Source: a virus (taxonomy: Duplodnaviria; Heunggongvirae; Uroviricota; Caudoviricetes). Taken from it: DNA of 26,759 nt. The notes beneath the pieces were generated by a model that saw only the letters and a program-made list of their open reading frames with translations, did not search any database and was not told the origin of the DNA. The first letter of the stretch is position 1; the number at the start of each line of letters is the position of its first letter. A program made the translations under genes and the position numbers. Positions 10,901-26,759 of the stretch are shown piece after piece. The stretch lies in the IMG/VR virus record IMGVR_UViG_2728369186_000003. One strand, given 5' to 3'.

Positions 10901-11180
10901 ATTCTTCTTTATCAATAAGCCCTTTATCGAAAAATTTCTTTAATTCAGAATAGCGTCGACCGACAGTATCAATTGCGGCACCAACTGGATCAATAGCTGC
11001 TTTTAATTTTGCGAGCGCGTTCTTCTCATCTTCTGTTGCCTTAGTCACTTTCCCTGCGCTATTTGCAGCAGTTTCCCCAGCCTGCGTCATTTTGACTAAT
11101 GAGGAGGTCAGATTGTCAGCATTATTTTTCGCTCCAGTGCTATCAATAATTATTGCGAGACGCGAGGTTTGCTCTGCCAT
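7947..11180 (-). CDS. Tail tape measure protein
   Basis: 1077-aa ORF, highly alpha-helical/coiled-coil composition (Ala/Gln/Glu/Lys/Leu-rich) with a Gly-rich hydrophobic segment. Position between the G/GT chaperone and M. The gene is visibly more AT-rich than its neighbours. SD AGGAG precedes the ATG at 11178-11180. Confidence 0.85.
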
Positions 11181-11203
11181 TTATTAAAACTCCTGACAAC
11201 AAA

Positions 11204-11225
11204 AAACCCACCGCGAAGTGGGTTT
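11204..11225 (-). terminator. Hairpin (terminator/attenuator-like) immediately upstream of the tape measure RBS
   Basis: AAACCCAC-cgcgaa-GTGGGTTT is a perfect 8-bp stem. On the minus strand it is followed by TTTTTTGTTGTCAGGAG then the tape measure ATG. Lies in a 165-bp non-coding spacer between GT and the tape measure gene. Confidence 0.45.
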
Positions 11226-11345
11226 CAGGCGACATAATAGTAGATATAGCGATTACGAGGCCACGCAATGCTTTTCTCCAGGAGCATCATCGATTTAATT
11301 AAAGACACCATCACATCTCTGTAACAGAGTGTACGTAATTAACAA

Positions 11346-12115: not shown

Positions 12116-12163
12116 TCAATGCGTCCCCCTGTAGGGCAGTACCACAGGAGGAATAACGGAAAA

Positions 12164-13126
12164 TCAACTAATCGCCTCAGCACTGGCTTTTGCGATCACG
12201 GCAGCCGGGGAATTTTTTTTTCTGGTTATCGTAGGTGCTTCATCTGCTGCGGTAATGCTCAATTGAACCTGGATAATGTCGCTATTACCCCCATCAGGCC
12301 ATTCACCTGACACCTGAACCTTCGGGAAACTGAAAGTGTATGCCCCCTCTCCATTCGAAAGCGTGAAGCTGAACGGAACTGTTTCTCCAGTCAGTGTTTT
12401 ACTCCAGATTTCCCACGCGGCTTTAGACCATGAAAGCGTCACCGTACCGGACGGTGTAAAAGTAGTCGGAATATTTGCTCCTGCATAAGGCGAGCCAGTC
12501 CCGATACAACGCTGTGTCTGGAGTTTGTTATCGAACTGAATATCAAAACTGTCGATACAAAAACCGTTACCTCCGGCAACACCATTCAGGCTTACTGCTG
12601 AAACCTCCTTAAACGAATAACGTAGCTTTCCTGCACTATCCACAGGTTCGCCTTTGATAAAATTCGTATCATCGGCCTTTGATTCCCAGTCCAGTCCGGC
12701 AAAGGTTACGGTCGCTGTAATATCGCCGTCGTTAGGGATCTGCATTTTCCATGAGCCAACCTGCGCTCCTCTGACGACAGAGGCAATTCCGACATCGGAC
12801 GCATAGGTCGCCAGAGAAAATGTTATTCGCTCATTCCCCATTGTCAGAGAATCGCCTGACCATTCCGCGCCGAAACAGGATGCAAGAAAATCATCATGTT
12901 GACCCCAGCGAAATTTGGTACCAACATCACCGCCGACATCCACAGTGCCAGGCGTCGCCCCCTGAGCCATCCGGGAGCCACCAATCTCATTATTTTCGCC
13001 TTTATTCTGGGTGGGTTTTACTCCCCAGCTTGTGCGTTTTAATAAACTCCAGTCACCACTTGCTGGCGTAGTGCCTGCAACCGTCTCCCGGATAAATGCC
13101 GAGATAACCTTTGCACCTGAACTCAC
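12164..13126 (-). CDS. Major tail (tube) protein, putative
   Basis: 320-aa ORF immediately upstream of the G/GT chaperone pair, the conserved position of the major tail protein in siphovirus tail modules. Gly/Thr/Ser-rich beta-type composition. Called from synteny only. Confidence 0.55.
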   Translation of the reverse strand: MSSGAKVISAFIRETVAGTTPASGDWSLLKRTSWGVKPTQNKGENNEIGGSRMAQGATPGTVDVGGDVGTKFRWGQHDDFLASCFGAEWSGDSLTMGNERITFSLATYASDVGIASVVRGAQVGSWKMQIPNDGDITATVTFAGLDWESKADDTNFIKGEPVDSAGKLRYSFKEVSAVSLNGVAGGNGFCIDSFDIQFDNKLQTQRCIGTGSPYAGANIPTTFTPSGTVTLSWSKAAWEIWSKTLTGETVPFSFTLSNGEGAYTFSFPKVQVSGEWPDGGNSDIIQVQLSITAADEAPTITRKKNSPAAVIAKASAEAIS

Positions 13127-13152
13127 AGGAGCCTCCTATGTCATTAATTGCG

Positions 13153-13545
13153 CTAGAGCGCGCGATATGGAATTTGAAGATTAAGCTGGAACCAGCCATT
13201 CTTTTCGCCAACGGCTATTGAGGAAACAGCCTGGTAACTGAGACGATCGTCATCCTGAAACTCAAACAGTTCCCGCAATTTATCGGCTGTCTCAGTAATG
13301 AGTTTTGAACCAGAACCTGCGGGGACAAATAACTGAATAATGATTATCCCCGTGCGATAAACAATCGGCCCCGCGCCAATTTCATTAACTCCAGCCTGCC
13401 CGGGAATATTACTTAACCGCGCCCAGATTAACTTACCGGAAGGATCGAACGTTGGCCCGTTCGGATACAATACGTCTTTTCCATCAATAATCGTCTGTGC
13501 CGTCATTCTGGAAATAACCGTATTTCTGATTTCAGTAAACTTCAT
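13153..13545 (-). CDS. Tail terminator / tail completion protein, putative
   Basis: 130-aa ORF directly upstream of the major tail gene; start overlaps the stop of the preceding gene (ATGA). Assigned by position. Confidence 0.4.
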   Translation of the reverse strand: MKFTEIRNTVISRMTAQTIIDGKDVLYPNGPTFDPSGKLIWARLSNIPGQAGVNEIGAGPIVYRTGIIIIQLFVPAGSGSKLITETADKLRELFEFQDDDRLSYQAVSSIAVGEKNGWFQLNLQIPYRAL

Positions 13546-13922
13546 TTGTAAGCCTGTAAAACACCATGAAAAGCGTTGGCATACACGCCAGTTGGCGCTT
13601 GTTGTGAATGACCGTTTTCAAGAGCCTCTGCATAAGGAAGGTTATTCTGGATATAAATAACCCCGTAATTTGCAGCTTTCGAAATAACCCCGATCCCACG
13701 CTGAACAGCAATCGTACCGTTCGGATCCACGTTATCAGATATACCAAAATCGGGATGCTGTAACGACACCAGGTTGTTATTTCTGAAACGTCCGGTATCA
13801 ACCGGAGCAGCAATATCAATAGCAGTAAGAATCTGAATAGCGATGTAGCGAATCTTCAGCCCTACATCTTCCTCAATCATCCCGGCAAATATTGACGGTT
13901 CTATATCCCATGCCTTTGCCAT
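13542..13922 (-). CDS. Head-tail joining / neck protein, putative (HK97 gp10-like)
   Basis: 126-aa ORF MAKAWDIEPSIFAGMIEEDVGLKIRYIAIQILTAIDIAAPVDTGRFRNN...; compact gene in the head-tail connector block. Family guess is from memory. Confidence 0.4.
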   Translation of the reverse strand: MAKAWDIEPSIFAGMIEEDVGLKIRYIAIQILTAIDIAAPVDTGRFRNNNLVSLQHPDFGISDNVDPNGTIAVQRGIGVISKAANYGVIYIQNNLPYAEALENGHSQQAPTGVYANAFHGVLQAYK

Positions 13923-14306
13923 TTACGCTCTCCTTAACTGGATAGAGTAAACTGATGCGGAAGGATCTACACTTGCTGTAATTACCTCGTATCGTTGTAA
14001 CTGCCTTGATACAGGATCATAAATCTCAATAATATGGTCGACAGCTGGTTTATCCGTAACCTCGCATACCAGAGCGGTTAATTTAAGGTCACCATGCAAA
14101 ATATTAATCCCATCAATTCTGCCCAGCTTATAACGTGTCAACACGCCTCGCCCGGTATAGATTGCGGTGGATTCGCCGCCAGTTTCCGTCACAGGATCCC
14201 AGTGCCGGTGCGTAACGTAAGAACCAGAAAAATCACTCACGGCGTCCGCTAAATCCTCATCAAAAGCAGCGGCAACCTCTGACTGAATCTCTTCACGAAG
14301 CCCCAT
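13923..14306 (-). CDS. Head closure / head-tail joining protein, putative
   Basis: 127-aa ORF tightly packed between neighbours; position in the connector block. Confidence 0.4.
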   Translation of the reverse strand: MGLREEIQSEVAAAFDEDLADAVSDFSGSYVTHRHWDPVTETGGESTAIYTGRGVLTRYKLGRIDGINILHGDLKLTALVCEVTDKPAVDHIIEIYDPVSRQLQRYEVITASVDPSASVYSIQLRRA

Positions 14307-14701
14307 TATCCCCCCCTCACAACCCTGACTTGTGAGCGACTAAGTCCGTACGGTTTCAGCAGTGCTATCGCAAGCTGTAAATCGGGTTCAAGCAATGCAG
14401 TGCTGTTTGCTGGCAACTCAGAAAATGATTTCGATACACTGACCCCGTCAGCCGACACGGCTTTACTGATAACAACGCCAGAATCATTTTTCTGCTGAAA
14501 CAACTTACCGAATGAGGCAATTCTGGCTGCATATGCTCCCGCAAGTTTTACCTCTTCAGGAATACGGGATGGGTTAATTTTCAGGTTGAAGCCATTAAGC
14601 CAGGCATTAGCCATTAAAACAGCTTTATTTTTAGCGTTCTCACTCGTCCAGGCGTTCCCAAACGCATTATCAACGTCATCACAGGTCACGTAAGTGATCA
14701 T
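14306..14701 (-). CDS. Head-tail adaptor / connector protein, putative
   Basis: 131-aa ORF MITYVTCDDVDNAFGNAWTSENAKNKAVLMANAWLNGF...; first gene of the connector block after the capsid gene. Stop overlaps the next start. Confidence 0.4.
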   Translation of the reverse strand: MITYVTCDDVDNAFGNAWTSENAKNKAVLMANAWLNGFNLKINPSRIPEEVKLAGAYAARIASFGKLFQQKNDSGVVISKAVSADGVSVSKSFSELPANSTALLEPDLQLAIALLKPYGLSRSQVRVVRGG

Positions 14702-14704
14702 GTG

Positions 14705-14881
14705 TTACTCCTGAGTTTTCCAGCCCATAGCCTTCCAGTTGTCAACTTCATCAGGATGAACATTAGCGATAGTTGGTGCGCCGGGAAACATCTGATAATC
14801 GGTCACCATAACCACTAACTCAATTTGCGTTTTTTGTGCGGCTTCACGCTGTGCTCTTTGCTCTTTAGTTAATCCGGCCAT
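14705..14881 (-). CDS. Small hypothetical protein (58 aa), absent from the ORF track
   Basis: Minus-strand ATG at 14879-14881 to TAA at 14705-14707 encodes MAGLTKEQRAQREAAQKTQIELVVMVTDYQMFPGAPTIANVHPDEVDNWKAMGWKTQE. It fills the gap between the capsid terminator and the connector gene. G-rich stretch upstream but no strong SD. Confidence 0.35.
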   Translation of the reverse strand: MAGLTKEQRAQREAAQKTQIELVVMVTDYQMFPGAPTIANVHPDEVDNWKAMGWKTQE

Positions 14882-14890
14882 ATGCCCCCC

Positions 14891-14913
14891 ATTAAAAATG
14901 GGGCCGAAGCCCC
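14891..14913 (-). terminator. Putative rho-independent terminator/attenuator downstream of the major capsid gene
   Basis: Minus strand reads GGGGC-TTCG-GCCCC followed by ATTTTTAAT (GNRA-like tetraloop, 5-bp GC stem, T-rich tail), 11 nt after the capsid stop. Confidence 0.55.
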
Positions 14914-14923
14914 GTTTGAATGT

Positions 14924-16063
14924 TTAACCAAGAATCAGACAACCATGTGCCGGCTTCACTGATGAAACACCCCATGCCAGTCCAACTTCATAGCGCACCT
15001 GGCGATACTGACGATACAGTGCAATCTGGAACGTAATCCCTGAAATCGGGTCCGTAACATTCATTACATCATCAGCATTATCGCCACCTTCCGGCATTGC
15101 CGGAGTACGGGATGCCAGCAGAAACGCGTTGCGATCAAACGCCATATTTGCAGTAAAGGCCCCAACAACTGTGATGGCAGTATCATCGGCCAGATCCTGA
15201 CGCAGTCCGGGCGCTGCAAGAGTAATCAGATTGCTGGTCGCTGCTGCCACAACATACTGATTCGGATCACCAGCGAACGTAACAATCTGACCTGCAGAAA
15301 TACTCCCCGAACCAGTATCAATGGAAATAAGAACATCGCCTTCTTTTTTCTCTCCATTCACGAGATAACCAGTTGCAGCAACCTTTGGCGCTCGTTTCAC
15401 ACCTGCCGAACTGTGAATATTGAATCCCTCCAGACGCCCCAACACGCCCTCACGCAGTAGCTGTTCAGTGCCGGATTCATTCACTTTAAACAATACAGAC
15501 TGTTTTCCGCGCAAATTAGCAATGGCAGTGGAGCCAAGCACCATCTGCAGATCGGTTGTCGGTGCGCCGTTATCCTCCAGAACCTGACGAGCCAGAGCAG
15601 CATCAGAAAGATCATCTTTAACACCAAACGGCGTTGTCCCTGCGGTTCCCACGGCGCGGGAAGCACCGAAATACAACGCACCAAGATCAGCCTCAACCTC
15701 GTTTGCAAGGGCGCGAAAAGCCTGCTTGAACTGATCAGCCAGAATGGTGTTGTAAGTCCCTGAAGGGCCAAGAGCCAGTTGTTCTTCACCATTCCATTTA
15801 ACCGGTGCCATTTTGGATTTAGTAATTTTTACATCAACAGTGCCAATATTTTGATCACCGGTATTCGGAGCTGACGGCCCCGGTACGATATCTTCGGTTT
15901 TCGCCTCAGGCGCAACTGGCGCGGTTACCGTCTGATCTTTTGCTGCGGCGTCAGCTTTTGCGTTTTTTGCTACCGCAGGGATAAAACCTACCTGCTCACG
16001 GGATACAACATCCAGGGCGGTATAAATAGTCGGGATCAACCCGGTCAGGGTATTTCCAGCCAT
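14924..16063 (-). CDS. Major capsid protein
   Basis: ORF 14924..16156; preferred start is the ATG at 16061-16063 (MAGNTLTGLIPTIYTALDVVSREQ...) preceded by AAGGAA. About 379 aa. Lies after the scaffold gene and before a strong hairpin, the usual capsid position. Confidence 0.7.
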   Translation of the reverse strand: MAGNTLTGLIPTIYTALDVVSREQVGFIPAVAKNAKADAAAKDQTVTAPVAPEAKTEDIVPGPSAPNTGDQNIGTVDVKITKSKMAPVKWNGEEQLALGPSGTYNTILADQFKQAFRALANEVEADLGALYFGASRAVGTAGTTPFGVKDDLSDAALARQVLEDNGAPTTDLQMVLGSTAIANLRGKQSVLFKVNESGTEQLLREGVLGRLEGFNIHSSAGVKRAPKVAATGYLVNGEKKEGDVLISIDTGSGSISAGQIVTFAGDPNQYVVAAATSNLITLAAPGLRQDLADDTAITVVGAFTANMAFDRNAFLLASRTPAMPEGGDNADDVMNVTDPISGITFQIALYRQYRQVRYEVGLAWGVSSVKPAHGCLILG

Positions 16064-16161
16064 AATTAAATATTCCTTAAAAATTTGCGTAATTGTGAAT
16101 AGATGGAGTAATGAGCTATCCAGCCCTGACACCAGCTCCCATCCGGAAGCTGACAAATGTG

Positions 16162-16926
16162 TTAATCAACAATTGTGATACCGTCTTTCAATGCGTTTTG
16201 CTTACCTGCAACATCCAGTGCATCAAAAGCAGAGCGTTTCATCGTTTTCTGACCAACATCATGCTGTGTCGGACGGGAGCCGCCGCCATTGTTGCCACTG
16301 GCTTTCAGGATGTAGTCTTTCTGAGGGTAATTTTCGACGAGGAACTCCAGCGCCTCATCAAACTGCGCCAGTTCGCCAGGCTTCGCGCGGGAATAAATTT
16401 TGTTGCCGGAAGCGTCATAAGCAACGATCTTCCCTTCTTCCACTTTGAATGCCTGCCCGAAGCGGGCTTGTAATAAATCTGCCGGGATCGCAATTTTATC
16501 GGCAATATATTTTGAACCCGCAAAACTACCGCCAATCATAGAATCGTAAAGCTGCGTCTCCAGCATCTGAGAGCGTTGCTTTTCTTCATCTAATTGCTGC
16601 TGAAAATTTTTCGTAATTTCTGCCTTAACCTGGTCAACCTGTCCCGCATCGATCAGCTTTTTCTGGTCGATTTTTGACAGCATTTCCAGTGCCTCGATCG
16701 CCTTCTTCGGGTCTTCGATAGCGGCAAACTTAGCCAGTTTTTCCTCTGCAGCTTCTTTAGCCAGGCGATGATTTTTTGCCTCGCCATTAAGCTCTGTAAT
16801 TTTTTTTATCGCCAGCGGTGCATCGAAGCCGATTTCTTTACCATCGTCGTGCACATAAACTGGCAGGCCAGCAGTATCAATTTCTGCGTATTGTTTTCCG
16901 TTAATCTCGACCGTTTTCAGTTTCAT
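16162..16926 (-). CDS. Scaffolding protein, putative
   Basis: ORF 16162..16998 begins at a GTG; the first ATG with an upstream AGGT is at 16924-16926 (MKLKTVEINGKQYAEIDTAG...). Central charged helical/coiled-coil region (EEKLAKFAAIEDPKKAIEALEMLSKIDQKK...QQQLDEEKQRSQMLETQLYD). Position directly upstream of the capsid gene. Confidence 0.55.
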   Translation of the reverse strand: MKLKTVEINGKQYAEIDTAGLPVYVHDDGKEIGFDAPLAIKKITELNGEAKNHRLAKEAAEEKLAKFAAIEDPKKAIEALEMLSKIDQKKLIDAGQVDQVKAEITKNFQQQLDEEKQRSQMLETQLYDSMIGGSFAGSKYIADKIAIPADLLQARFGQAFKVEEGKIVAYDASGNKIYSRAKPGELAQFDEALEFLVENYPQKDYILKASGNNGGGSRPTQHDVGQKTMKRSAFDALDVAGKQNALKDGITIVD

Positions 16927-16986
16927 ATTAGTACCTGGTTTAAGTCTTCCGACAGTTACGCTGCTCACCATCCGGATCGCAGCAAT

Positions 16987-17010
16987 AAAAAAGGCCACCC
17001 GAAGGTAGCC
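16987..17010 (-). terminator. Putative terminator/attenuator between head morphogenesis and scaffold genes
   Basis: Minus strand reads GGCTACC-TTCG-GGTGGCC followed by TTTTTTATT (7-bp stem with one G-U pair), 20 nt after the stop at 17031-17033. Confidence 0.45.
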
Positions 17011-17030
17011 TGTTGTAATAAATGATTTAT

Positions 17031-18146
17031 TTAAATCCCTGCTTTTCTGAATACCTGTGCATCACGCTCACGGAGTTGCTTCAGCGTCAGCCATTCGCCT
17101 TTATCGGTGTAAAATTCATCTGGCGACATACCGCCATCCCGAATCAGCTTTGCCCGGGTTTCCCCCACAATCTGTTTTTGTCTGGTGTAAGGCTGACGCA
17201 AAAACCATTCCCTGTAGGTTGTATCTCCGGCCACCACGCCATCCATGCTGGCCCGCTCAGCCGGGGAAATATCACGAACATCAATACCCAGTTCCTTCGC
17301 TGATTTCAGAATGAACGTTTCCGTTGAGCGGCAGCAGAAATGAATTTTTCCCGGCCCATGCAAATAAGGCACACTGTGACCTACAGGTTTATTATCCAGC
17401 GTATATTTGAGGCGATCCCTGATTCGACATTGTGGCGTAGTACGATTATCAAGCGTTGATAACCATTGCTTACCCTTAATCAAATCATTATTCGCGCTGG
17501 CAAAACTCTCACGGGCAGTAGCAGCAAGATGTCCAACCGCTGTTTTTGCAATGCTGGCCGCATTAGCCCGGCTCATCTGCAATGCACCATCCTGAAATCC
17601 CTTGCTGACATGTCCCCGAATTTTTCTTGCGATCTGCTCATTGGTATCCCCCAGCAAAAAACCCTGACGCACCGTATTTGTTATGCGTCTGAGCCGATCC
17701 GCCTCAAGATCCAAGGCCCACTCACTGAGCAGTCGTCCCTGGAATGGTCGCGCCATTGCAGCGGCGTAAAGTGCATCAGAAGATATACCAACCAGAGGGT
17801 GAACATCAGCAACAAAATCAGGTAGCAGAGAATCAAACAGACTTAACTGATAACCAGCCTCATAAATTGCCAGCTCGTTCAGCTCTCCGGAGAGACTGGT
17901 AAACATGCTGTTAATAGCAGCGCGGTTAACCTCTCTGACACTCGCCAGAAGTGACTCTAGGCGCGTAACGGTAAAACTACCAGGATCGAGGCTGTCCAGT
18001 GCTACCAGCAGGCGAGCTGTAAGCTCCGCATCGCTGTCATTCAGTATTTTCACCATTCTGGCAGCCACACCAGTGCTATAGCGGGATATCCAGACTGCAT
18101 GAGCAATTGATTCATCACGCAGCCGTTCATTCACGGTTTGCATCAT
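17031..18146 (-). CDS. Head morphogenesis / minor head protein (Mu gpF / SPP1 gp7-like), putative
   Basis: 371-aa ORF directly downstream of the portal gene, overlapping its end by 20 nt. Assigned by synteny (terminase, portal, MuF-like, scaffold, capsid). Confidence 0.55.
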   Translation of the reverse strand: MMQTVNERLRDESIAHAVWISRYSTGVAARMVKILNDSDAELTARLLVALDSLDPGSFTVTRLESLLASVREVNRAAINSMFTSLSGELNELAIYEAGYQLSLFDSLLPDFVADVHPLVGISSDALYAAAMARPFQGRLLSEWALDLEADRLRRITNTVRQGFLLGDTNEQIARKIRGHVSKGFQDGALQMSRANAASIAKTAVGHLAATARESFASANNDLIKGKQWLSTLDNRTTPQCRIRDRLKYTLDNKPVGHSVPYLHGPGKIHFCCRSTETFILKSAKELGIDVRDISPAERASMDGVVAGDTTYREWFLRQPYTRQKQIVGETRAKLIRDGGMSPDEFYTDKGEWLTLKQLRERDAQVFRKAGI

Positions 18147-19533
18147 TGATTTCCATCAACATTACACTCTGATTTTTTAATTCATCGATCACATCCTCTG
18201 GACGGGAATCCTGATCGATAAATTTCAACGCCTGCAACACCCGAACCGCATCAATCTGACGTATATCACCGCCCTGACGCAATGACTGAACAGCCAGCGC
18301 GGAGGATGAGTCAAACACCTGGGCAGATACATCCAGTTCAGTGCGCACATCCACATTGCCACCGCAACTCTCTCCGCTCCATTCCGCCATTATCTGGAGA
18401 ATATTATCGAGGGCATCTTCGAGGGAGTTCGCCATTGTATAAAGCGGCGAGTGTTCCTGCATCCGCTCTTCATTAGTCTGATCAACAGATTTGGTGGATG
18501 TATTTTCAGCCCGCAGAAGTTTAGCGCCGGCATGACGCATCTGATTTTCCAGCTTCTCAAGTGATGTTTCGCCAGATTCTATCGCTGCGCCACTATGTTC
18601 AACATATTCGAGGCCATTTTTTGTTCTGTCCTCAAAAATCGTAGCCGTGGATGCACCAACCGTCAGTTCTTCATTCCTGTCCAGCCCGTAGGCCACCAGC
18701 AATGGAACGCGGGCAACATGAAGAATATTGTCCTGCTCGCTCTGGCTTTGCCAGTGCTTGATATTCAGCAAGCCAAGATTAAGCAATGGCGGTGTACCAC
18801 GCATAAACCCTGTTTTCTTCGTATACAGTGTTACCAGAGGAATATCATCACGGCTGGTATTCCATGACTCATGAAGCATCCAGACAGATTCGCCATTAGT
18901 ACCTTCGCTGCGTCGATAAATTTCTACTCGACGGGGCATAATATGGCGGATCTGCTCCACCTTCTTCTGCCCGAAATCATCACCATCAATAATGATGACC
19001 TCTTTTATACGCAAATCAGTGAGAACAACTTTCCCTTTTTCAACTTTCGATTTCCATCCAATAACCTGGCGTGGATTCAGCATCGTAACGTACGGGCGAC
19101 CACCGGCCGCGTTTTCATCGGCTTTTGTCCGAATCTCGTTCATATCCGTTCGTGGATAGTCCACCAGCGCATGTGCCACACCATACTGAAATGCGAGACT
19201 GAAAAATTGCTGCGCCCACACATCCAGTCGGCTCCCCTCCATGTCGATATTTTCTGCATATTCCCTGATTTTTTCCGGCGTTTCCTCACTCAATACTGTC
19301 GGCTCTGCAAATATGCGCCCAATATTTTGTTTGATGCTTTCTTCATACACAGGAAGTAACGTAGCCACAGACAGGCGTTTTTTATAAGCGTCTTCATCTT
19401 CATTAGGCCATTTGGGGAGATAATTTTCCCCCTGCCTGCGCATTTCAAGCGTACCGCCCATCAATGCGTCGTTAATATCCCACGCCTCCAGCATATCGTT
19501 ATAGTCGAGGTTGGGTGTTGATATATCAGCCAT
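18127..19533 (-). CDS. Portal protein
   Basis: 468-aa ORF starting 2 nt after the terminase large subunit stop. Size and position typical of portal proteins; acidic C-terminal tail. Confidence 0.7.
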   Translation of the reverse strand: MADISTPNLDYNDMLEAWDINDALMGGTLEMRRQGENYLPKWPNEDEDAYKKRLSVATLLPVYEESIKQNIGRIFAEPTVLSEETPEKIREYAENIDMEGSRLDVWAQQFFSLAFQYGVAHALVDYPRTDMNEIRTKADENAAGGRPYVTMLNPRQVIGWKSKVEKGKVVLTDLRIKEVIIIDGDDFGQKKVEQIRHIMPRRVEIYRRSEGTNGESVWMLHESWNTSRDDIPLVTLYTKKTGFMRGTPPLLNLGLLNIKHWQSQSEQDNILHVARVPLLVAYGLDRNEELTVGASTATIFEDRTKNGLEYVEHSGAAIESGETSLEKLENQMRHAGAKLLRAENTSTKSVDQTNEERMQEHSPLYTMANSLEDALDNILQIMAEWSGESCGGNVDVRTELDVSAQVFDSSSALAVQSLRQGGDIRQIDAVRVLQALKFIDQDSRPEDVIDELKNQSVMLMEINDANRE

Positions 19534-19535
19534 AA

Positions 19536-20846
19536 TTAAATCCGAAGTGATGTGACTCTTCCGGTCGGTTTGACAATAGGGAATTGCTTAACGATGAAAT
19601 AACCTCCGGCATCATTCGGGTGATCATTGCCAGATTTTTTATCAGGCTCCCCCTTATCATCCCAGACCTGTTGCTCCAGAGATTCGGCATATACCGGACA
19701 ACGCTTCACATTAACTTTATAGCGACGCTCACCATTGGCATTGCAGAACATTGCATTCATTGAGTTAACGCGATCTTTTACTGGCGGGTTCGAGCTGTTC
19801 ACCACAACGTTAAAACCTGCCTGCTTAAGCTGGGCTATATCCGTCGTACTTGCGTTACTTGATTTTCTGGAATCTCCGGAAGCATCTGGATAAATATAAA
19901 TCTCCCTCACTTTCCGGTAATCATGCCCGTCATACAGCCAGAAGCGTTCTTTAATGAGGCGGATCATATCCGGCGTATCGTAGGCATTGATGATTTCAGT
20001 TACCGCACATGGAAGCCCCAAACGCAGCACATGGACGATTCCCGCCATCTTTCCAACGTTAAAATCCATCCCAATATAAATCGGCTCCCCTGGCTGCTCC
20101 ACTTCTTCGCAATTATTCAGTTTCCGGTCAAACTGATGGTAAACAGTACCACTTGTCAGGTTAGTAAACCGTCCTAGAAGATAGGCTTTAATCAGCTCTG
20201 GAGGGTATGATTCAAGAAGTGAAGGAATGTAATCTGCTGGCAGGTTCTTTTCATTATCGAAAGTAGATGCCTGCACCAGACCATACAGTGAGGCCAGCTC
20301 TGTTTTTTCACGCACGGCTTTAACAAACTGCTCGTAGACAAATTTGAATCCTTCCGGCGTGGTTGTAACGTCAATACCGTTGCGAAGTCCATCAATCTTA
20401 TAACGCATACGCGCAATTATCTTGCGCCACGCCGTTCTGGCTTTTTCCTTCGGCAAAATGTCCAGTTCATCCACCAGCGCATTACCAATTTTGAAACCGA
20501 CGATCGTTTGTGGCTTCTCCATCGATCTGCAGATAGTGGTTCCCCGATACTGGCGTCCGTAATAAAAGTGAACCTCTTTATTTCCCTCATTAATTTTTAC
20601 GTTCAATCCCCAGTCAGCAGCAACTTCTTCCACTGTAGGGTAAAAAATATCGCGAATTTGGGGATACGTTGGCGCAAAATATCCCTGATTTATACCTGGA
20701 TGCTCCCAAATCCCCTTGCATATGCCGCCACACCCAACCCATGTTTTGCCCGAGCCAAAACCAGCAATATAGGCTTTAAATTTATGGGGCATTGAAAGAA
20801 ATCGCGCCTGAGGCACATTAAGCGTCGGAGAGATCATCTTCATCAC
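19536..20846 (-). CDS. Terminase large subunit
   Basis: 436-aa ORF with N-terminal Walker A-like P-loop (YIAGFGSGKTW) and a C-terminal nuclease-type region with conserved acidic residues (IYIGMDFN...YPDASGD). Follows the small subunit gene with overlap. Confidence 0.85.
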   Translation of the reverse strand: MMKMISPTLNVPQARFLSMPHKFKAYIAGFGSGKTWVGCGGICKGIWEHPGINQGYFAPTYPQIRDIFYPTVEEVAADWGLNVKINEGNKEVHFYYGRQYRGTTICRSMEKPQTIVGFKIGNALVDELDILPKEKARTAWRKIIARMRYKIDGLRNGIDVTTTPEGFKFVYEQFVKAVREKTELASLYGLVQASTFDNEKNLPADYIPSLLESYPPELIKAYLLGRFTNLTSGTVYHQFDRKLNNCEEVEQPGEPIYIGMDFNVGKMAGIVHVLRLGLPCAVTEIINAYDTPDMIRLIKERFWLYDGHDYRKVREIYIYPDASGDSRKSSNASTTDIAQLKQAGFNVVVNSSNPPVKDRVNSMNAMFCNANGERRYKVNVKRCPVYAESLEQQVWDDKGEPDKKSGNDHPNDAGGYFIVKQFPIVKPTGRVTSLRI

Positions 20847-21912
20847 TCCTTAATCTGGCATCAACCACATTAATATTGATCGCCACAGGCTGGGGATGTT
20901 CATTATCCTCCACCGTTTCGATCTCTTTGCGCAGCTTCTGGTTCTCTATTCTGCGCCGTTCAATTTCCAGTTCCTGTAGCCGCTTATCTGCACATAATGC
21001 CCCGCCAGCAGAAAGCAAACGCAACAATTCACGCCGGGCGGCAGCCTTATCCTCCAGCAGGATCTCAACACCGTATTTTCCGAGCTTTGACCCTGCATAT
21101 AATTGCCGCGCATCCCCATCAAGCAGTGTGGTATCAGCCATATAAAGCTGTCCTGTTCCCTCACCGCAGCACTTCGGGCAATCAGGATTGGGTATGGCGT
21201 TATCAACAAAGCCGAGGCCTCCATATTCCGGCTCGGGTTTACCATCTCTGGAGGCCTGTGCCGCAGCCTTATCGAATTCTGCAATATCACGCCACTGGTA
21301 GAGATGATTCTCGCCCCAGCAATAACGGCAGTTAACACGGCGAAATTGTGCCAACTGATTGGGGTCGGCCTGGACAATGGCCATCAACTGGCTCACCAGT
21401 AAATCCAGGTCTGCGGTATAGCGTTTCTGGTACTGATTGCGGAAGTAGCTGATAGCACGATAAACCCTGGCATTTCTAAGCATACGGCTGGCGTTGCTGT
21501 TAGCTGTCGCACCTTGCCCCTCATAACCAGCCAGTCGGTATGCCTCTGTCGGCTTTTTCCCCTGAGCAACCAACATGGCGAATTTTGCCTGCTGGTCAGA
21601 AATACCGAATTCATCGGGGCAGAACGAAATTTCTTCCGTGTCCCCCTCAATCAGGAGTGCATCGGATACAGCCTTTTTTTTCTGAGATTTTCCGTTCTGC
21701 CTTTGCGCAGTCTGCGCAGTTTTTTTTCGCGCACTTTTTTGCGCAGTTTTGCGCATTTCTTTCTGCGCATTTTTCGGAGTTTTTTTGATGTAACGACGGG
21801 CTGTTGCGTAGTTCAGTCCCCTTGCTTCACACCATGCCACCGGAGATATACCGGAGCGGGTGTATTCAGCAATATACTCCTGCTGCAACGCCCCCCAGTC
21901 CGGTCTGCTCAT
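20818..21912 (-). CDS. Terminase small subunit, putative (unusually long, with Lys-rich linker and Cys-pair motifs)
   Basis: 364-aa ORF directly upstream of the large subunit. N-terminal HTH-like segment (SGISPVAWCEARGLNYATARRYIKK), a Lys/Ala/Gln-rich low-complexity linker (KNAQKEMRKTAQKSARKKTAQTAQRQNGKSQKKK), and CxxC...CxxCC pairs (CRYCWGENH...CPKCCGEG). Confidence 0.55.
   Translation of the reverse strand: MSRPDWGALQQEYIAEYTRSGISPVAWCEARGLNYATARRYIKKTPKNAQKEMRKTAQKSARKKTAQTAQRQNGKSQKKKAVSDALLIEGDTEEISFCPDEFGISDQQAKFAMLVAQGKKPTEAYRLAGYEGQGATANSNASRMLRNARVYRAISYFRNQYQKRYTADLDLLVSQLMAIVQADPNQLAQFRRVNCRYCWGENHLYQWRDIAEFDKAAAQASRDGKPEPEYGGLGFVDNAIPNPDCPKCCGEGTGQLYMADTTLLDGDARQLYAGSKLGKYGVEILLEDKAAARRELLRLLSAGGALCADKRLQELEIERRRIENQKLRKEIETVEDNEHPQPVAININVVDARLRSDEDDLSDA
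21700..21775. repeat. Cluster of short direct repeats (TGCGCA core separated by T/A runs) inside the terminase small subunit gene
   Basis: Plus strand: ctttgcgcagtctgcgcagttttttttcgcgcacttttttgcgcagttttgcgcatttctttctgcgcattttt. At least six TGCGCA-type units with T7-T8 homopolymers; encodes the KTAQK-type peptide repeats. Confidence 0.6.
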
Positions 21913-21915
21913 CAG

Positions 21916-22167
21916 TTAGTCCTGATTTTTATCCACCCTGAGTAGTTCGCGCAGAGCAAAGGCATCCCCTTTTCTGGCAAGCTTAAACAATGCCGCTCGT
22001 AACTCGGCTTCACCTTTCGCTCTGCCCTTACGGATGGCCGCATAAAAATCTGTCATTGCTTCCCGATTTTCTTTCAGTCGGTTCAGATCAACATCCAGAA
22101 CGTCAGCGATTTGTTGTGCAGTCATCCGGCACGCTGCCAGAGACTCGACTTTCGAATACGGAATCAT
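21916..22167 (-). CDS. Small HTH-like protein (83 aa), function unknown
   Basis: MIPYSKVESLAACRMTAQQIADVLDVDLNRLKENREAMTDFYAAIRKGRAKGEAELRAALFKLARKGD... The ATG at 22165-22167 is preceded by GGGGGTGA. Stop is 4 nt before the terminase small subunit start; its 5' end overlaps the upstream gene by 65 nt. Confidence 0.5.
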   Translation of the reverse strand: MIPYSKVESLAACRMTAQQIADVLDVDLNRLKENREAMTDFYAAIRKGRAKGEAELRAALFKLARKGDAFALRELLRVDKNQD

Positions 22168-23059
22168 TTGTCACCCCCATTGATATGCAGGGTGTCTTCT
22201 TCCTGTATTTTTCGTGAAGGATTTTTACTGCAGCGTTGTTCCAGGTGACCTGATGGTGAATGCGTTTATGGCTGGCACCCATCAGTGAGATTTTTACGCA
22301 CGACGGCGAATACATGACGGAGTAAAAACTTTTAACGTAGGTTCCGGAATCCAGATACAGCTCGGTCATTCCGCCGCTGTTTTTCTGCGTCTGTTTCTGC
22401 CCTAACTGGACAGCACCGATCGTCATAAACAATTCACCACAGCGACCGAGATTCGTGTACGTATTCACATCCTCGTTAATGCGCCCCATGAATGAGAACG
22501 GTCGATCAACCGAACAGATAAAGCTGTTCATTGCCTTGCGTTTCACCCACGAAGCATGGCCGCCATTGTCACCAAGAAAATCCCCGCCCTGCGACATAGC
22601 GATGGAAAGCGCGGGTATTGATTCGTAATACGCCAGCATTTCAGAAAGGATCGCATCCAGTTTCCTTATCGGGAAATAGGCCTGGTCATAGTTGCGATCC
22701 ACCCGAAACTGGAACTCGTGATAATCATCATCGAGCTGAATGAAGTATTTACACCCGACCAGTTTTGCCAGGTCGAAACAGGCATTACGGGCGTAAAAAA
22801 TTGAGCGGCGATCACCAAAATTATCGGCTTCGTCAAAACGACTGGCAATATCGGCTTTGGAAAATACCAGCACCTGTTCACCAAATTCAGCCATGTACTG
22901 ATGCCGTGTCTTATCTTCATCATCAACAACGATAAAAATTTTCCCGGTATAGCCAGCACGACGCAACGTCCGGTAAGTCAGAACTTTGTCCGGTCGCCCG
23001 TGAGTCAGAATAAAGGCGCAAAAATCATCACGCATATTCCTCCTCCTCCTCCCCGCCAT
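22103..23059 (-). CDS. Uncharacterised protein with two DxD-like acidic motifs (possible GT-A-like glycosyl/nucleotidyl transferase)
   Basis: 318-aa ORF. The N terminus has a strand-helix-strand pattern ending in an acidic cluster (FILTHGRPDKVLTYRTLRRAGYTGKIFIVVDDEDK), and a second motif lies about 60 residues later (FIQLDDDYHEF), reminiscent of GT-A fold enzymes. Family assignment is a guess from motifs only. Overlaps the ParB-like gene by 32 nt; alternative start 23035. Confidence 0.5.
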   Translation of the reverse strand: MAGRRRRNMRDDFCAFILTHGRPDKVLTYRTLRRAGYTGKIFIVVDDEDKTRHQYMAEFGEQVLVFSKADIASRFDEADNFGDRRSIFYARNACFDLAKLVGCKYFIQLDDDYHEFQFRVDRNYDQAYFPIRKLDAILSEMLAYYESIPALSIAMSQGGDFLGDNGGHASWVKRKAMNSFICSVDRPFSFMGRINEDVNTYTNLGRCGELFMTIGAVQLGQKQTQKNSGGMTELYLDSGTYVKSFYSVMYSPSCVKISLMGASHKRIHHQVTWNNAAVKILHEKYRKKTPCISMGVTNDSVFESRVSGSVPDDCTTNR

Positions 23060-23822
23060 GCATGATCTCCACCATGCGCTGCGTCATTCGGACAAATCCA
23101 TTTTCAATAGCCTGCTGATAATCAATGATCACCAGCGCCGACTCCTCGAAAAGGCACTGAATTTCAGCGGGGGCATGAGCGTAATAGTCCGCAATTCTGC
23201 TGAAATTAAACACTGTGTGACGTTCTGCCGCACACAGGAGGAATTTCTCAATATCAGGATCAAGGGACGCCGAACGTATCCGGCTGATCAGCTCCTGAGT
23301 TTTCGTATCGTCGTACAGTTCACTGATATCCGGTTTACCGCCCGACGGCTCATAAACAGGCGTATCAATTTTCGTCGTATACGGCTCCTCCTCATTTCCT
23401 GTACCGGGCAAAACATCCGTCAACAGTTCATCAATTTCTGTCGGGATGAAGCCTGTCAGGGAGACATCAAAATCAGCATTGATTAGGTCCGACAGCTCCA
23501 TCCGCAACAGATCTTCATCCCAGCCAGCATTCATCGGCAGGCGATTATCTGCCAGGCGGTACGCCTTTTTCTGCTCATCCGTCAGGCCAGACAGAACAAT
23601 GACCGGAACAGAATCCATTTTGAGCATTTCAGCCGCCATAACACGACCGTGACCCGCAATAATTTCGCCCTTTTCGTCAATCAGCACCGGATTAGTCCAG
23701 CCGAATTGCTTAATACTTTCTACCAGTTGTGCCACCTGCTCAGTACTGTGCGTCCTGGCGTTGTGCGCATACGGTGACAATTCTTGTAATGGGCGATAGA
23801 CTATCTTTAATTTCTCGCTCAT
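23028..23822 (-). CDS. ParB N-terminal (ParB/sulfiredoxin-like nuclease) domain protein
   Basis: 264-aa ORF. The N-terminal 100 aa carry the signature I.YRPLQELSPYAHNARTHS..Q...L..SI..FGW..PVLID..GEIIAGHGRVMAA..L....VPVIVL....D.Q..AYRLADNRL. The C-terminal half is acidic and ends in EEEEEYA. RBS AAGG is 5 nt upstream of the ATG at 23820-23822. Confidence 0.8.
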   Translation of the reverse strand: MSEKLKIVYRPLQELSPYAHNARTHSTEQVAQLVESIKQFGWTNPVLIDEKGEIIAGHGRVMAAEMLKMDSVPVIVLSGLTDEQKKAYRLADNRLPMNAGWDEDLLRMELSDLINADFDVSLTGFIPTEIDELLTDVLPGTGNEEEPYTTKIDTPVYEPSGGKPDISELYDDTKTQELISRIRSASLDPDIEKFLLCAAERHTVFNFSRIADYYAHAPAEIQCLFEESALVIIDYQQAIENGFVRMTQRMVEIMHGGEEEEEYA

Positions 23823-23850
23823 ACAGCCTTGCTTTATGAATAAAACGCAC

Positions 23851-23874
23851 CCCAGCAGCCAGTGCTACTGGGGG
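23851..23874 (-). terminator. Weak hairpin downstream of trkG (possible moron terminator)
   Basis: CCCCAG-(12-nt loop)-CTGGGG; on the minus strand followed by GCGTTTTATTCAT. Loop is long, so support is weak. Confidence 0.3.
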
Positions 23875-23959
23875 CGGAGGTGTTGCTGGTAAAGTTAGGT
23901 ATTGGATCAATGAGTGAGTCAACATAATATTAAACTCACAATTATAAATCAGCCATATA

Positions 23960-25417
23960 TTAGGAGCGCCAAAAAAAACCTGAAAACAATATAATAACAG
24001 GATAAATTTCAAGGCGACCAAGAATCATAGCTATGCACATTAAATATTTTGCAATGTCATTAAGCACTCCGAATGACGATGCAGTAGCCCCAAAACCTAA
24101 TCCCATATTATTAATACATGCAGCCACTGTTGCAAATGATGTAAGAAAATCATATCCCATACCATTTAACACCAGTATAAAAAACACCGTGAAGAGAGTA
24201 TAAAGAAAAAAGAAACTCCATACAGACCTCATTACACGATCTGTAACTATCTTCCCTCCTACATTTACACTCAACAACGCTCTGGGATGAGAAAGCTGAT
24301 TTATCTCGTGTTTGCTTTGTTTGAAAAGTATAAGAAATCGAAGTGACTTAATTCCACCACAGGTTGAACCTATACATCCCCCAAAGAAACTTGACAACAG
24401 CAAAAACACTATCGTGTGCGTGGGCCAGTTTGCATAATCCTGCGTAGCTAAACCATTATCAGTGAGCATGGAGCTGGCAAGAAAAAACGAATGAATAAAA
24501 CTTCCATGCAAGTCATACATACCTATATGCCAGACCTGGAAAGAGGTAACAATGATCACCCCTAAGGCTATTAACAGAAAGAAACGAAGTTCAATATCTC
24601 TGATTAAAGGTTTTATCGTTTTTCTGCTAATAACAATATACCAAAGAGTGAAGTTGAAAGCCGATAGCAGGGAAAAAGAACCAGCCACCAGCTCAACCAA
24701 ATAGTTATTAAAATATCCGATACTCTCGCTATGAGTTGAGAAACCACCAAGCGAAACTGTGGAAATCCCGTGACAAATAGCATCAAACAAAGGCATTCCT
24801 GCAAGTCTATAACAGACAATACAAGCAATACCTAATAAAGAATAAGTTATCCACAGTGTCCGTGACGTATCGGCCAGGCGGGGAGTGAGTTTGTCATCCT
24901 TAAATGGCCCCGGCATTTCTGACTGATAAAGCTTTGCACCACCAATACCCAATAATGGCAATACTGCAACCGCCAGAACAATAACTCCTAAACCACCTAT
25001 AAAATTTAACTGTGACCGATAGTACAAATATGCCCGAGGTAATGAACTAACATCATCAATTACAGTTGCTCCTGTTGTTGTTATTCCAGAAACCCCTTCA
25101 AACAGAGCATCAATGAACGTTAAATTAAGTTCTGAGTCAAACCATAAAGGGAATGCACTAATAACAGAAAACAAAATCCAAAACATTACAATTATAATAA
25201 ACCCATCACGGGTACGTAATTGAATGCCAGATTTCTTAGTTGTATACCACGCTCCGCCACCAATGCAAAAAAATATAACGAAAGTTATAAAGAAAACGAA
25301 CAGGCTTTTTTCTTTATAAAACAATGCTACAACCATTGGTGGCAACATTGAAAGACTATAGAGCCAAACCAGGAACCCACACATATGAGTAACAACTCTT
25401 ACATGAGATGTATTCAT
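23960..25417 (-). CDS. trkG: TrkG/TrkH-family potassium uptake membrane protein
   Basis: The track ORF (23960..25435) begins at a TTG; the first ATG is at 25415-25417 (MNTSHVRVVTHMCGFLVWLYS...), giving 485 aa. Many hydrophobic helices and repeated GxG-type selectivity-filter-like motifs (TTTGAT, LGGFS, GSTCGG, NMGLGFG). Recognised as E. coli Rac-prophage TrkG from memory. The gene is strikingly AT-rich compared with flanking phage genes. Confidence 0.85.
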   Translation of the reverse strand: MNTSHVRVVTHMCGFLVWLYSLSMLPPMVVALFYKEKSLFVFFITFVIFFCIGGGAWYTTKKSGIQLRTRDGFIIIVMFWILFSVISAFPLWFDSELNLTFIDALFEGVSGITTTGATVIDDVSSLPRAYLYYRSQLNFIGGLGVIVLAVAVLPLLGIGGAKLYQSEMPGPFKDDKLTPRLADTSRTLWITYSLLGIACIVCYRLAGMPLFDAICHGISTVSLGGFSTHSESIGYFNNYLVELVAGSFSLLSAFNFTLWYIVISRKTIKPLIRDIELRFFLLIALGVIIVTSFQVWHIGMYDLHGSFIHSFFLASSMLTDNGLATQDYANWPTHTIVFLLLSSFFGGCIGSTCGGIKSLRFLILFKQSKHEINQLSHPRALLSVNVGGKIVTDRVMRSVWSFFFLYTLFTVFFILVLNGMGYDFLTSFATVAACINNMGLGFGATASSFGVLNDIAKYLMCIAMILGRLEIYPVIILFSGFFWRS

Positions 25418-25554
25418 ACCTAAATATTCTTTCAATTATAACCACCTTGCTGCAATATTATGATTATACTGTATAAAATTTAACTCCTCTTAGATCTTAC
25501 TTCACTGTTCCTTATGAAACAATCATCAAAATGAATCATATTGTAGTTAAGATT

Positions 25555-26019
25555 TTACTTTAAACACTGTTCGGTTATGTATTGCTGAGCACCTTCAAGT
25601 TGGGCCTGCATCATTACCAGTCGTTCCCGGAGGGTGAAATAATCCCGTTCAGCGGTGTCTGCCAGTCTGGGGGAGACTGCATTATCCACGCTGGAGGTGG
25701 CGGTGGCTTCACGCACTGACTGACAGACTGCTTTGATGCGCAACCGACGACGACCAGCGGCAACATCATCACGCAGAGCATCATTTTCAGCTTTCGCATC
25801 AGCTAACTCCTTCGTGTATTTTGCATCGAGCGCAGCAACATCACGCTGACGCATCTGCATGTCAGTAATTGCCGCGTTCGCCAGCTTCAGTTCTCTGGCA
25901 TTTTTGTCGCGCTGTTCTTTGTAGGCGATGGCGTTATCACGGTAATGATTAACACCCCATGACAGGCAGACGACGATGCAGATAACCAGAGCGGAGATAA
26001 TCGCGGTTACTCTGTTCAT
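25555..26019 (-). CDS. Rz: Spanin, inner-membrane subunit (Rz, i-spanin)
   Basis: ATG at 26017-26019 ([60 protein letters not shown]...). N-terminal TM helix then coiled-coil periplasmic domain, close to lambda Rz. Start overlaps the endolysin stop by 4 nt. Track start at 26031 is a GTG. Confidence 0.9.
25614..25799 (-). CDS. Rz1: Spanin, outer-membrane lipoprotein subunit (Rz1, o-spanin), embedded in Rz in another frame
   Basis: 61-aa [55 protein letters not shown]... with lipobox VVGC, proline-rich periplasmic segment, entirely inside the Rz coding region. Nearly identical to lambda Rz1 as I remember it. Confidence 0.85.
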
Positions 26020-26513
26020 TGCTGACCCCACAAACAGATTTCACGCTCAATCTCACGACGAGTCATGAGACCTTTCCATTGCTTACCGCCAGCATATGTC
26101 CAGCGACGTAGCTGATCACATGCGCCTTTGATATCGCCCTGGTTTATTTTGCGAAGAAGCGTCGATGTTCTGAAATTGCCAGCACCCACGTTGTAAACGA
26201 ATGAGTAAAGAGCGCCGCGCGTTGTTTCCGGTATATCGACTTTGATGTACGGGTTAATTTGTCTGGCGACCGTGGCAAGGTCTTTATTCAAGAGTGTTTT
26301 GCATTCTGCTTTGGTATACGTTTTACCGAGCATGATGTCTTTTCCTGTATGCCCGTGACATACAGTCCATACACCAACAATATCTTTGTATGGTATGTAG
26401 CTGACACCTTCCAGACCATCGTTACCACTTGGGCCAGTGATTAACACTGATGCTATAGCAATTGCTCCGCCACCAATAGCAGCAGCAACGACTTTTCGTA
26501 ATGATGGAGGCAT
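26016..26513 (-). CDS. R: SAR endolysin (phage 21 R-type lysozyme with signal-arrest-release N terminus)
   Basis: 165 aa: [57 protein letters not shown]... The Gly/Ala-rich weakly hydrophobic N-terminal helix is typical of SAR domains, followed by an E-8aa-D-5aa-T catalytic triad spacing ([16 protein letters not shown]) of T4-lysozyme-like muramidases. ATG overlaps the holin stop by 1 nt. Confidence 0.9.
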
Positions 26514-26728
26514 TATTCACCTCTCGCAGCCTTGCGCTTATCTTCTTTAATCTTGAAATAAAGGTTTGTCAGGTACGTCAGTAGGCCAAATACCAGACTA
26601 CCCAGCACACCGATTGCAGCCCACTGTGACGGAGTTACTCTATCGAGCAACTGTAAAAACCAGTAGCCAGCACTGCCTGCGGAGGTGCCGTAGGCAATAC
26701 CTGTTGAAATTTTGTCCATGGATTTCAT
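26513..26728 (-). CDS. S: Pinholin (phage 21 S-type class II holin) with dual-start motif
   Basis: ATG at 26726-26728 preceded by GGAGGTGA, encoding [71 protein letters not shown] (71 aa). A second in-frame ATG three codons later (MDK...) gives the 68-aa form. Two TM helices, the first Gly/Ala-rich. Track ORF extends upstream only because no stop intervenes. Confidence 0.9.
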
Positions 26729-26759
26729 AGCCTCACCTCCGCACGGAACGGATGGCATA

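Follow-up and report, generated by a model that had tools for sequence, protein, structure and literature searches.

The idea that ParB-like proteins direct DNA modification is an old one (Iyer et al. 2013, as cited in PMC13229309), and in the closest described system a phage ParB-like protein is the obligate activator of a thymine dioxygenase acting on double-stranded DNA (dsDNA) (5mYOX176/ParB176; O'Toole et al., PNAS 2026, PMC13229309). ParB176 consists of a nucleotide-binding domain, a short helical segment, a disordered linker of ~50 amino acids (aa) and a C-terminal domain (CTD), and has no DNA-binding domain; mutants of its nucleoside triphosphate (NTP) site stay active, and 5mYOX/ParB clusters often lie near terminase genes (PMC13229309). 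The locus analysed here is a pair of overlapping genes in a viral sequence of 26,759 nucleotides (nt) (IMG/VR record IMGVR_UViG_2728369186_000003; the window hereafter denotes this whole stretch), which represents the late region of a Rac-type lambdoid Escherichia coli prophage and reads on the minus strand. The first gene encodes a ParB-like protein, here called the partner, and the second a glycosyltransferase (GT) of the TET-associated glycosyltransferase (TAGT) family. A large and very conserved part of the TAGTs that have been described as 'solitary' proves not to be solitary: a partner domain dedicated to them always accompanies them, in most cases carried on a ParB scaffold and usually at the head of a packaging operon. 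The preferred reading is that the glycosyltransferase is expressed late, requires the ParB-like partner and has DNA as its target before or around packaging, to which a probability of roughly 0.45 is assigned.

The Rac partner has the layout of ParB176, as far as the published description of that protein (rather than its sequence) allows the comparison, and is likewise encoded beside its client enzyme. The client is a GT-A sugar transferase instead of a 5-methylpyrimidine dioxygenase, and the Rac CTD, again relative to ParB176 as described, is a distinct and highly conserved domain with an invariant linker motif. While the requirement for ParB176 was measured, the dependence of the Rac transferase would follow from co-occurrence in 76 of 76 loci. 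The transferase itself shares its Pfam family, fold and motifs with the GT-A DNA glycosyltransferases (the T2/T6 beta-glucosyl-HMC-alpha-glucosyltransferase, the TET-associated phage GTs and the trypanosome JGT), and tandem paralogues occur as they do in sequential-sugar clusters. Unlike these enzymes, the Rac-type subfamily has an obligate CTD partner, and its genomes yielded no source of a hydroxymethyl-pyrimidine; its members are 43–60% identical across phyla, as opposed to ~24% to the T4-like members.

Fusions of ParB to DNA methyltransferases (PHROG 498; the N-terminus of PADLOC MTase_II) carry a homologous N-terminal domain (residues 1–140, E 9e-51 to PHROG 498, 30–60% identity) and also lie just upstream of the terminase, but their effector is a fused methyltransferase, whereas the Rac effector is a separate GT that would be recruited through a dedicated CTD. 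In the DpdA/DpdB 7-deazaguanine system the ParB-like NTPase DpdB works with the DNA base-modifying DpdA; that system differs from the pair in its chemistry, a transglycosylase base exchange, and in its setting, a bacterial defence island and not a phage late operon. The animal TAGT-family O-GlcNAc transferase GREB1 has a related GT domain and is the source of the RefSeq name 'GREB1-related protein' for the Rac enzyme, but is a large eukaryotic protein that acts on ER-alpha and has no ParB partner. Both domains of the pair belong to known superfamilies. The strict pairing of TAGT and CTD, the CTD with its linker motif, the variants that consist of the CTD only and the systematic lack of a hydroxymethyl-pyrimidine source were not found in the searchable literature.

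The glycosyltransferase

An initial annotation, made from the window's sequence alone, had named two overlapping minus-strand open reading frames (ORFs), both of which are present (264 and 318 aa; Table 1), and had guessed from its acidic clusters that the second protein was an uncharacterised relative of GT-A transferases. The guess was correct and the adjective was not, as the 318-aa ORF is, on profile, model and conservation evidence, clearly a TAGT member with the GT-A fold and an intact active site. It matches the Pfam family TAGT (PF20691; E 6.1e-35, 121.5 bits against a cutoff of 27.5, profile positions 4–205 of 205) and PHROG 842 (1.5e-103). The fold and the R...DDD...ED(Y/F) active-site motifs are both present, as judged from an AlphaFold2 (AF2) model and from conservation, in agreement with the published motif of the phage DNA GT-A enzymes (R...DDD...EDY/F). 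Residue numbers here refer to a 310-aa form of the protein, and conservation to 80 species-level loci. Both acidic clusters noted earlier are conserved, the first at D38 (96%) and D41 (100%) and the second at the DDD motif, and R14, D102–D104 and E188–D189 are together conserved at 94–100%. The same annotation had reported no methyltransferase or PAPS-reductase signatures, and profile scans detected neither domain; a PDB sequence search with the GT found nothing. The C-terminal ~25 residues of the Rac enzyme are not conserved and are missing from all other homologues in a comparison of nine diverse pairs. The isoelectric point (pI) of the GT ranges from 4.7 to 9.4, and charge does not discriminate a DNA-binding GT.

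The start of the GT gene is more likely the ATG at 23035 (MRDDF..., 310 aa) than the one at 23059, since every homologue begins at this position, RefSeq places the start here too and the codon has a GGAGG run ahead of it. With this start the two genes overlap by 8 nt (ATGCGTGA). The initial annotation had also treated an acidic tail as a feature of the partner; the EEEEE tail is present, but it is missing from the homologues and its codons form the Shine-Dalgarno run for the GT; it is a signal for translational coupling and no conserved feature of the protein. A functional role of the tail at the protein level was rejected on the same two grounds.

The partner protein

The ParB N-terminal/sulfiredoxin-like domain of the partner was recognised correctly from the start and is borne out by Pfam ParB_N (PF02195; E 8.9e-7, 29.3 bits with the cutoff at 26.3), PHROG 620 (1.7e-90) and the structural matches of the AF2 model; the RefSeq name is 'ynaK: ParB/Srx family N-terminal domain-containing protein'. 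Foldseek placed the model closest to ParB-CDP (E 3e-7), MxParB-CTPgS, Noc, PadC and KorB, followed by sulfiredoxin (Srx) and SerK. The phosphate-binding residues are kept in the window's partner, namely R23 in box I, G57 and R60 in box II (GxxR) and N93 in box III, and are conserved among 65 homologues (N21 97%, R23 77%, G57 100%, R60 85%, N93 95%). None of these 65 retains the catalytic Glu of the GERR box; the position is His in 68% and Asn in 31%, the window motif being GHGR. That this is a domain type which phages attach to DNA-modifying enzymes, as had been supposed, is in keeping with the 30–60% identity of the N-domain to the ParB-methyltransferase fusions and its match to the N-terminus of PADLOC MTase_II.

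Several GenBank records name the partner 'chromosome (plasmid) partitioning protein'. A role in plasmid or chromosome partition is scarcely credible, as is the notion, taken up with the E. coli variants below, of a decaying and functionless remnant. No helix-turn-helix (HTH) was detected, the TIGR00180 score of 38.1 falls below the cutoff of 58.45 and no parA was called in the window or in the gene-called neighbourhoods examined; together with GHGR in place of GERR, these led to the rejection of a canonical partition ParB (ParABS). A scan for repeats around the pair likewise found no parS-like inverted repeat.

The N-domain is followed by a linker predicted to be disordered (pLDDT < 50 at residues 137–164), which holds the motif YTxKIxxPxYEP. 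Within this motif Y148, P155 and Y157 do not vary across 70 diverse sequences and reach 97% conservation in a set of 78. The CTD behind it has invariant residues of its own in the 70 sequences (L195, R201, A211, Y214, E226 and D234), has no Pfam match above threshold and has no credible PDB sequence homologue, a profile search having given only spurious designed-armadillo matches; it is thus a domain without an existing library description. The CTD family comprises 1,191 clusters at 50% identity, is always C-terminal and resides in proteins mostly 250–300 aa in length. Its most conserved segment (SALVIID...AIxxGF) and the linker are of low confidence in the AF2 monomer, which fits, without proving, folding upon binding.

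Pairing and breadth

A viral-contig search with the single GT returned only Rac-type loci at 97–100% identity, and the diversity of the pair was sampled through protein-database neighbourhoods, phage tblastn and a profile scan in which each species was represented by a single genome. The GT family was matched by no fewer than 7,983 clusters (90% identity). The profile scan yielded the 80 loci used above, at 43–100% identity, from the Proteobacteria, Bacteroidota, Firmicutes, Chlorobi-group, candidate phyla radiation (CPR), Planctomycetota, Verrucomicrobiota, Acidobacteriota and archaea including Methanosphaera, and the pair recurs at 43–60% identity across many bacterial phyla and archaea. Deposited phages with a GT of 39–47% identity include Nocardia NTR1, Lactobacillus phi jlb1, c5 and phiLdb, the Vibrio 191-kb phages and the haloarchaeal HHTV-2.

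The upstream gene could be determined in 76 of the 80 species-level loci, and a CTD gene lies upstream of the GT in every one of them, immediately so in 73. These 73 upstream genes encode a ParB N-domain with the CTD (61), the CTD only or with the N-domain undetected (8), or are cut by a contig edge (4); in the other 3 of the 76 a second TAGT paralogue alone intervenes. Among deposited phage records the CTD occurs in exactly 28, and these coincide with the records that have a full-length TAGT at 39% identity or more. In the nine diverse pairs, the partners are homologous over their full length and the genes overlap by 4–26 nt (9/9).

Partners composed of only the linker motif and the CTD (~130–160 aa) were found in Vibrio phage pv27 (locus L094 of this analysis, 5489–5908) and in L118, L154, L159, L173 and L175, the carriers including the 191-kb Vibrio phages, several metagenome-assembled genomes (MAGs) and one Methanosphaera MAG; the linker motif is kept in these as well. 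Pairwise identities of CTD and GT correlate (r = 0.56), and mean identity is 0.48–0.49 for the CTD and 0.50–0.51 for the GT, against 0.36 for the N-domain. The N-domain alone occurs in 531 phage records, most of them ParB-methyltransferase fusions and some DUF4417 fusions or stand-alone proteins. A CTD that is as constrained as the GT and always paired with it, next to a looser N-domain, suggests that the linker and CTD form the GT-specific partner and the ParB N-domain a swappable adaptor. Strict co-occurrence, gene overlap and co-variation of the two genes would likewise point to a GT activity dependent on the partner. Approximately 75 of the 285 core positions in the GT, and 30 in the CTD, reach 85% conservation or more across loci and phyla, indicating strong purifying selection.

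The second, divergent TAGT paralogues (L147 9160–10011; L150 3581–5275, with a C-terminal extension of ~280 aa; L163 641–1489) fit a sequential addition of sugars and suggest the building of di- or oligosaccharides. In the L. delbrueckii phages Ld17, LL-Ku and Ld25A, split or partial TAGT and partner genes lie at the genome start, with c5 and phiLdb closer to intact; such natural knock-outs offer material for comparison. A metagenomic phage locus (L086, 15837–16894) holds the pair plus two Glycos_transf_2 genes after the capsid genes, the latter possibly a virion glycosylation system distinct from the TAGT. The pair does not correspond to a known anti-phage defence system, a candidate that was rejected on a PADLOC scan in which the GT had no match and the N-domain of the partner matched only the N-terminal part of MTase_II.

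Position at the packaging genes

The window's pair lies between trkG, on the lysis side, and the terminase genes, as the initial annotation had located it. This placement is the usual one: the first large ORF downstream of the pair is a recognised large terminase subunit (TerL) in at least 41 of 55 loci and a portal in 5 more. The terminases are of the types Terminase_6 (23), Terminase_3 (14), lambda GpA (3–4) and TerL_ATPase (1), and the pair thus accompanies TerL proteins of four or more unrelated families. Phage c5 has the pair as its first two genes after cos. Exceptions are HHTV-2, in which it lies 3 kb from TerL, and the Vibrio 191-kb phages, in which it sits among primase, exonuclease and helicase genes, a DNA context that favours the preferred reading. 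Relatives of the N-domain with other attachments, mostly DNA-methylase fusions, occupy the same slot just upstream of the terminase.

Adjacency of this kind would also be expected if the ParB-like protein were primarily a packaging accessory working with the terminase at pac/cos, like the HNH proteins of HK97-like phages, with the GT as an add-on that acts on the packaging complex or plays a secondary part. In most loci the pair is immediately upstream of the small terminase subunit (TerS) or TerL, and stand-alone N-domain relatives of ~200 aa come first ahead of the packaging genes in vB_YpM_41 and PVP-XSN. Such a role is nevertheless improbable as the primary one: it is the CTD and GT that are constrained and always paired, while some lineages can do without the N-domain; the copies in the Vibrio jumbo phages and HHTV-2 do not adjoin the terminase; and the terminase families differ, making a specific protein-protein fit unlikely. 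The stand-alone relatives are the closest to the N-domain (57–61% identity) and are gene-1 proteins in Yersinia vB_YpM_41 (L178 415–1005) and Vibrio PVP-XSN (L179 153–755), followed by a gene of ~180–210 aa and then an ORF of ~620 aa (TerL in PVP-XSN; unannotated in vB_YpM_41). Their arrangement hints at a packaging-linked role of the ParB N-domain's own.

The universality of the pair across hosts and at least four TerL families speaks for an acceptor that is itself universal and against a protein specific to one phage. A transferase that acts on protein, whether on the partner's invariant linker Tyr/Thr in the manner of glycogenin self-priming or on another phage or host protein, is unlikely; it would amount to a new phage glycosylation system. 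Such an acceptor leaves unexplained why the ParB N-domain of most partners is common to DNA methylases and why the pair turns up alongside virion and terminase types that are not related to one another, from bacterial to archaeal hosts, and the invariant Tyr and Pro are equally typical of a docking motif. The TAGT-family enzyme GREB1, which does glycosylate a protein, is the precedent on its side and to that extent counts against DNA as the acceptor.

Proposed mechanism and the question of the acceptor

Under the preferred reading of a partner-dependent DNA glycosyltransferase, the partner and the GT would form one translationally coupled, late-expressed unit, in which the linker motif and CTD bind the transferase and activate or complete it. 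The ParB/Srx N-domain would serve as an adaptor that, probably in a nucleotide-bound form, engages the replicated DNA of the phage when packaging is due, and the phage DNA would be glycosylated just before or during packaging, leaving the injected genome protected from host nucleases. The logic of protection would be the same as for Mu Mom and the late ParB-methylases. Activation by the partner, DNA as the acceptor and an anti-restriction benefit are the inferred elements of the scheme. The initial annotation, whose interpretation is upheld in part, had offered a DNA-modification, anti-restriction or packaging-associated module; DNA modification at the packaging genes is the best supported of these readings. 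If the preferred reading is true, the principle of a ParB-activated DNA-modifying enzyme would extend from dioxygenases to sugar transferases.

Several observations weigh against this scheme. Approximately 15% of the N-domains lack the box-II arginine (R60), and some partners have no N-domain at all; the partner is strongly acidic (pI 4.1–4.8) and has no recognisable DNA-binding domain, with no HTH found by Pfam. Further, unmodified DNA has no hydroxyl acceptor except at its ends, and no glycosyltransferase is known to us to use canonical DNA as its acceptor. No annotated dioxygenase (TET/JBP), hydroxymethylase (thymidylate-synthase-type) or DNA methylase is present in the intact Rac prophage of strain MB15 from lom to intR, nor is a TET/JBP dioxygenase or hydroxymethylase annotated in phi jlb1 (38 kb) or c5 (32 kb), both complete genomes. 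The upstream ORFs of 53 loci, 202 in number, showed no recurrent dioxygenase or hydroxymethylase within the 25 commonest Pfam families per scan, a depth at which a single or divergent match could escape; the recurrent families were ordinary replication and recombination genes. In addition, no experiment on the ParB–GT pair was found in the searchable literature.

The characterised members of the TAGT family place a sugar onto 5-hydroxymethylcytosine (5hmC), glucosyl-5hmC or 5-hydroxymethyluracil (5hmU) in DNA, and the database labels carry this function over to the Rac enzyme: the label of PHROG 842 and the 'TET-associated' of the Pfam name would make it a T2/T6-type beta-glucosyl-HMC-alpha-glucosyltransferase or a TET-associated enzyme on 5hmC, 5hmU or glucosyl-5hmC. 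This is very improbable. No alpha-GT or beta-GT, dCMP/dUMP hydroxymethylase or TET/JBP is annotated in the complete genomes with the pair and none is recurrent in the 53 loci; T4-like homologues are only 23–25% identical. At the level of annotations and the 25 commonest Pfam families per scan, no genomic association of the TAGT with TET/JBP or a hydroxymethylase supplying 5hmC/5hmU was found. A second glucosylation of the T-even type was rejected for the same lack of annotated hydroxymethylcytosine pathway genes and the same low identity. Published surveys had already flagged the 'solitary' TAGTs as unexplained: neither a dioxygenase nor a hydroxymethylase neighbours the GT in ~65% of phage GT contigs, and 'solitary' TAGTs were counted in 288 of 753 phage genomes that encode a GT, with ParB and terminase neighbours mentioned only in passing.

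A phage-made 5hmC or 5hmU is an unlikely acceptor for the partner-dependent transferase. The sugar might instead be placed directly on ordinary DNA, at a canonical base (e.g., an exocyclic amine) or the backbone, without prior hydroxymethylation and with the partner opening or presenting the dsDNA, a proposal that is itself doubtful. Should the acceptor be unmodified DNA, this would be a new DNA chemistry and class of hypermodification, with uses in anti-restriction biology and DNA labelling, present at full length in about one-sixth of the complete genomes of E. coli and found as well in viruses of archaea and of many bacterial phyla. The question of the acceptor is readily testable, as the genes reside in a classical E. 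coli prophage for which K-12 provides a natural deletion background.

Variants in E. coli

Of 5,426 complete E. coli genomes, 1,600 contain the 1.9-kb region of the pair, 889 of them at full length. In K-12, the Rac locus aligns to positions 23569–25999 and 10246–12005 of the window, and an 11.6-kb deletion of 12006–23568 has removed the GT, the terminase and the head genes. The deletion junction (12005|23569) joins the tail-module ORF of ydaY to codon ~85 of the partner. The match of the pair to K-12 ynaK/ydaY given in the initial annotation was right for ynaK, which is a truncated partner gene retaining the first ~85 codons, and wrong for ydaY, which is the C-terminal part of a tail-module ORF (window 11654–12115), the GT being deleted in K-12. 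An overexpression screen found that the truncated K-12 ynaK (87 aa, a fragment of the ParB N-domain) raised the minimum inhibitory concentrations of six antibiotics 3–6-fold (PMC12924614).

Database proteins in which ParB or TAGT fragments are fused to Lom, tail-fibre or terminase domains (e.g., P0029, P0194 and P0229) hint that deletions of this kind have arisen more than once among the Rac remnants of E. coli. Strain MB15 has a partner gene annotated as a pseudogene beside an intact GT (L001 21566–21823), and in strain 13KWH46 (NZ_CP019250.1) an IS3 element interrupts the region. The ParB–GT module is being lost in some lysogens, and pseudogenes, disruptions by insertion sequences and the K-12 truncation are what a decaying remnant would leave; such a remnant does not account for the ~75 GT and 30 CTD positions held at 85% or more across phyla.

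Genomic context of the pair

The features of the window are given in Table 1. In the order of transcription the lysis cassette comes first, and the head and tail genes follow TerL. The GC content of trkG (0.37–0.42, against ~0.48 in the flanks) and its own terminator-like hairpin fit a moron inserted into the late operon. The hairpin sits 28 nt upstream of the start codon of the partner and would be read through by antiterminated late transcription. In scans for promoters and repeats around the pair, only terminator-like hairpins exceeded chance (10 against 3.5 expected).

Table 1. Coordinates of the ParB–GT pair, its domains and motifs, and the neighbouring late genes in the window
Feature	Position	Strand	Basis or remark
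Partner gene (full-length form of ynaK, 264 aa)	23028..23822	-	ORF; Pfam ParB_N; PHROG 620
ParB/Srx (CTPase-fold) N-domain and short helical segment, residues 1–136	23415..23822	-	AF2 pLDDT 72–92; Foldseek
Linker motif Y148-T-x-K-I-x-x-P155-x-Y157-E-P	23346..23381	-	within predicted-disordered segment
CTD, residues ~165–255	23058..23330	-	TAGT-specific; without Pfam family
GGAGG-repeat Shine-Dalgarno run for GT start	23037..23054	-	same bases encode partner EEEEE tail
TAGT-family GT-A glycosyltransferase gene	22103..23035	-	310 aa from likely start; ORF reaches upstream ATG at 23059 (22103..23059, 318 aa)
DDD metal and nucleotide-sugar motif, D102–D104	22724..22732	-	98–100% conserved in 80 loci
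E188–D189 of GRINEDVNTY motif, putative catalytic base region	22469..22474	-	E188 94%, D189 100%, Y193 99%
C-terminal extension of Rac GT, residues 286–310	22106..22180	-	overlaps next small ORF; AF2 pLDDT < 50
Holin, lysozyme, Rz	25555-26758	-	lysis cassette
trkG	23960-25435	-	low-GC moron between lysis cassette and partner gene
Terminator-like hairpin after trkG	23850-23873	-	10-bp stem, 7 GC pairs, T-rich tail
Small ORF, 83 aa (RefSeq: 69 aa)	21916-22167	-	between GT and TerS
TerS	20818-21912	-	downstream of small ORF
TerL	19536-20846	-	after TerS

The small ORF between the GT and TerS matches only part of the TerS family phrog_309 (positions 145–218) and may be a split-off DNA-binding piece of TerS. 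A similar gene of 85 aa occupies the same slot in a Pantoea locus (L088, 10862–11119).

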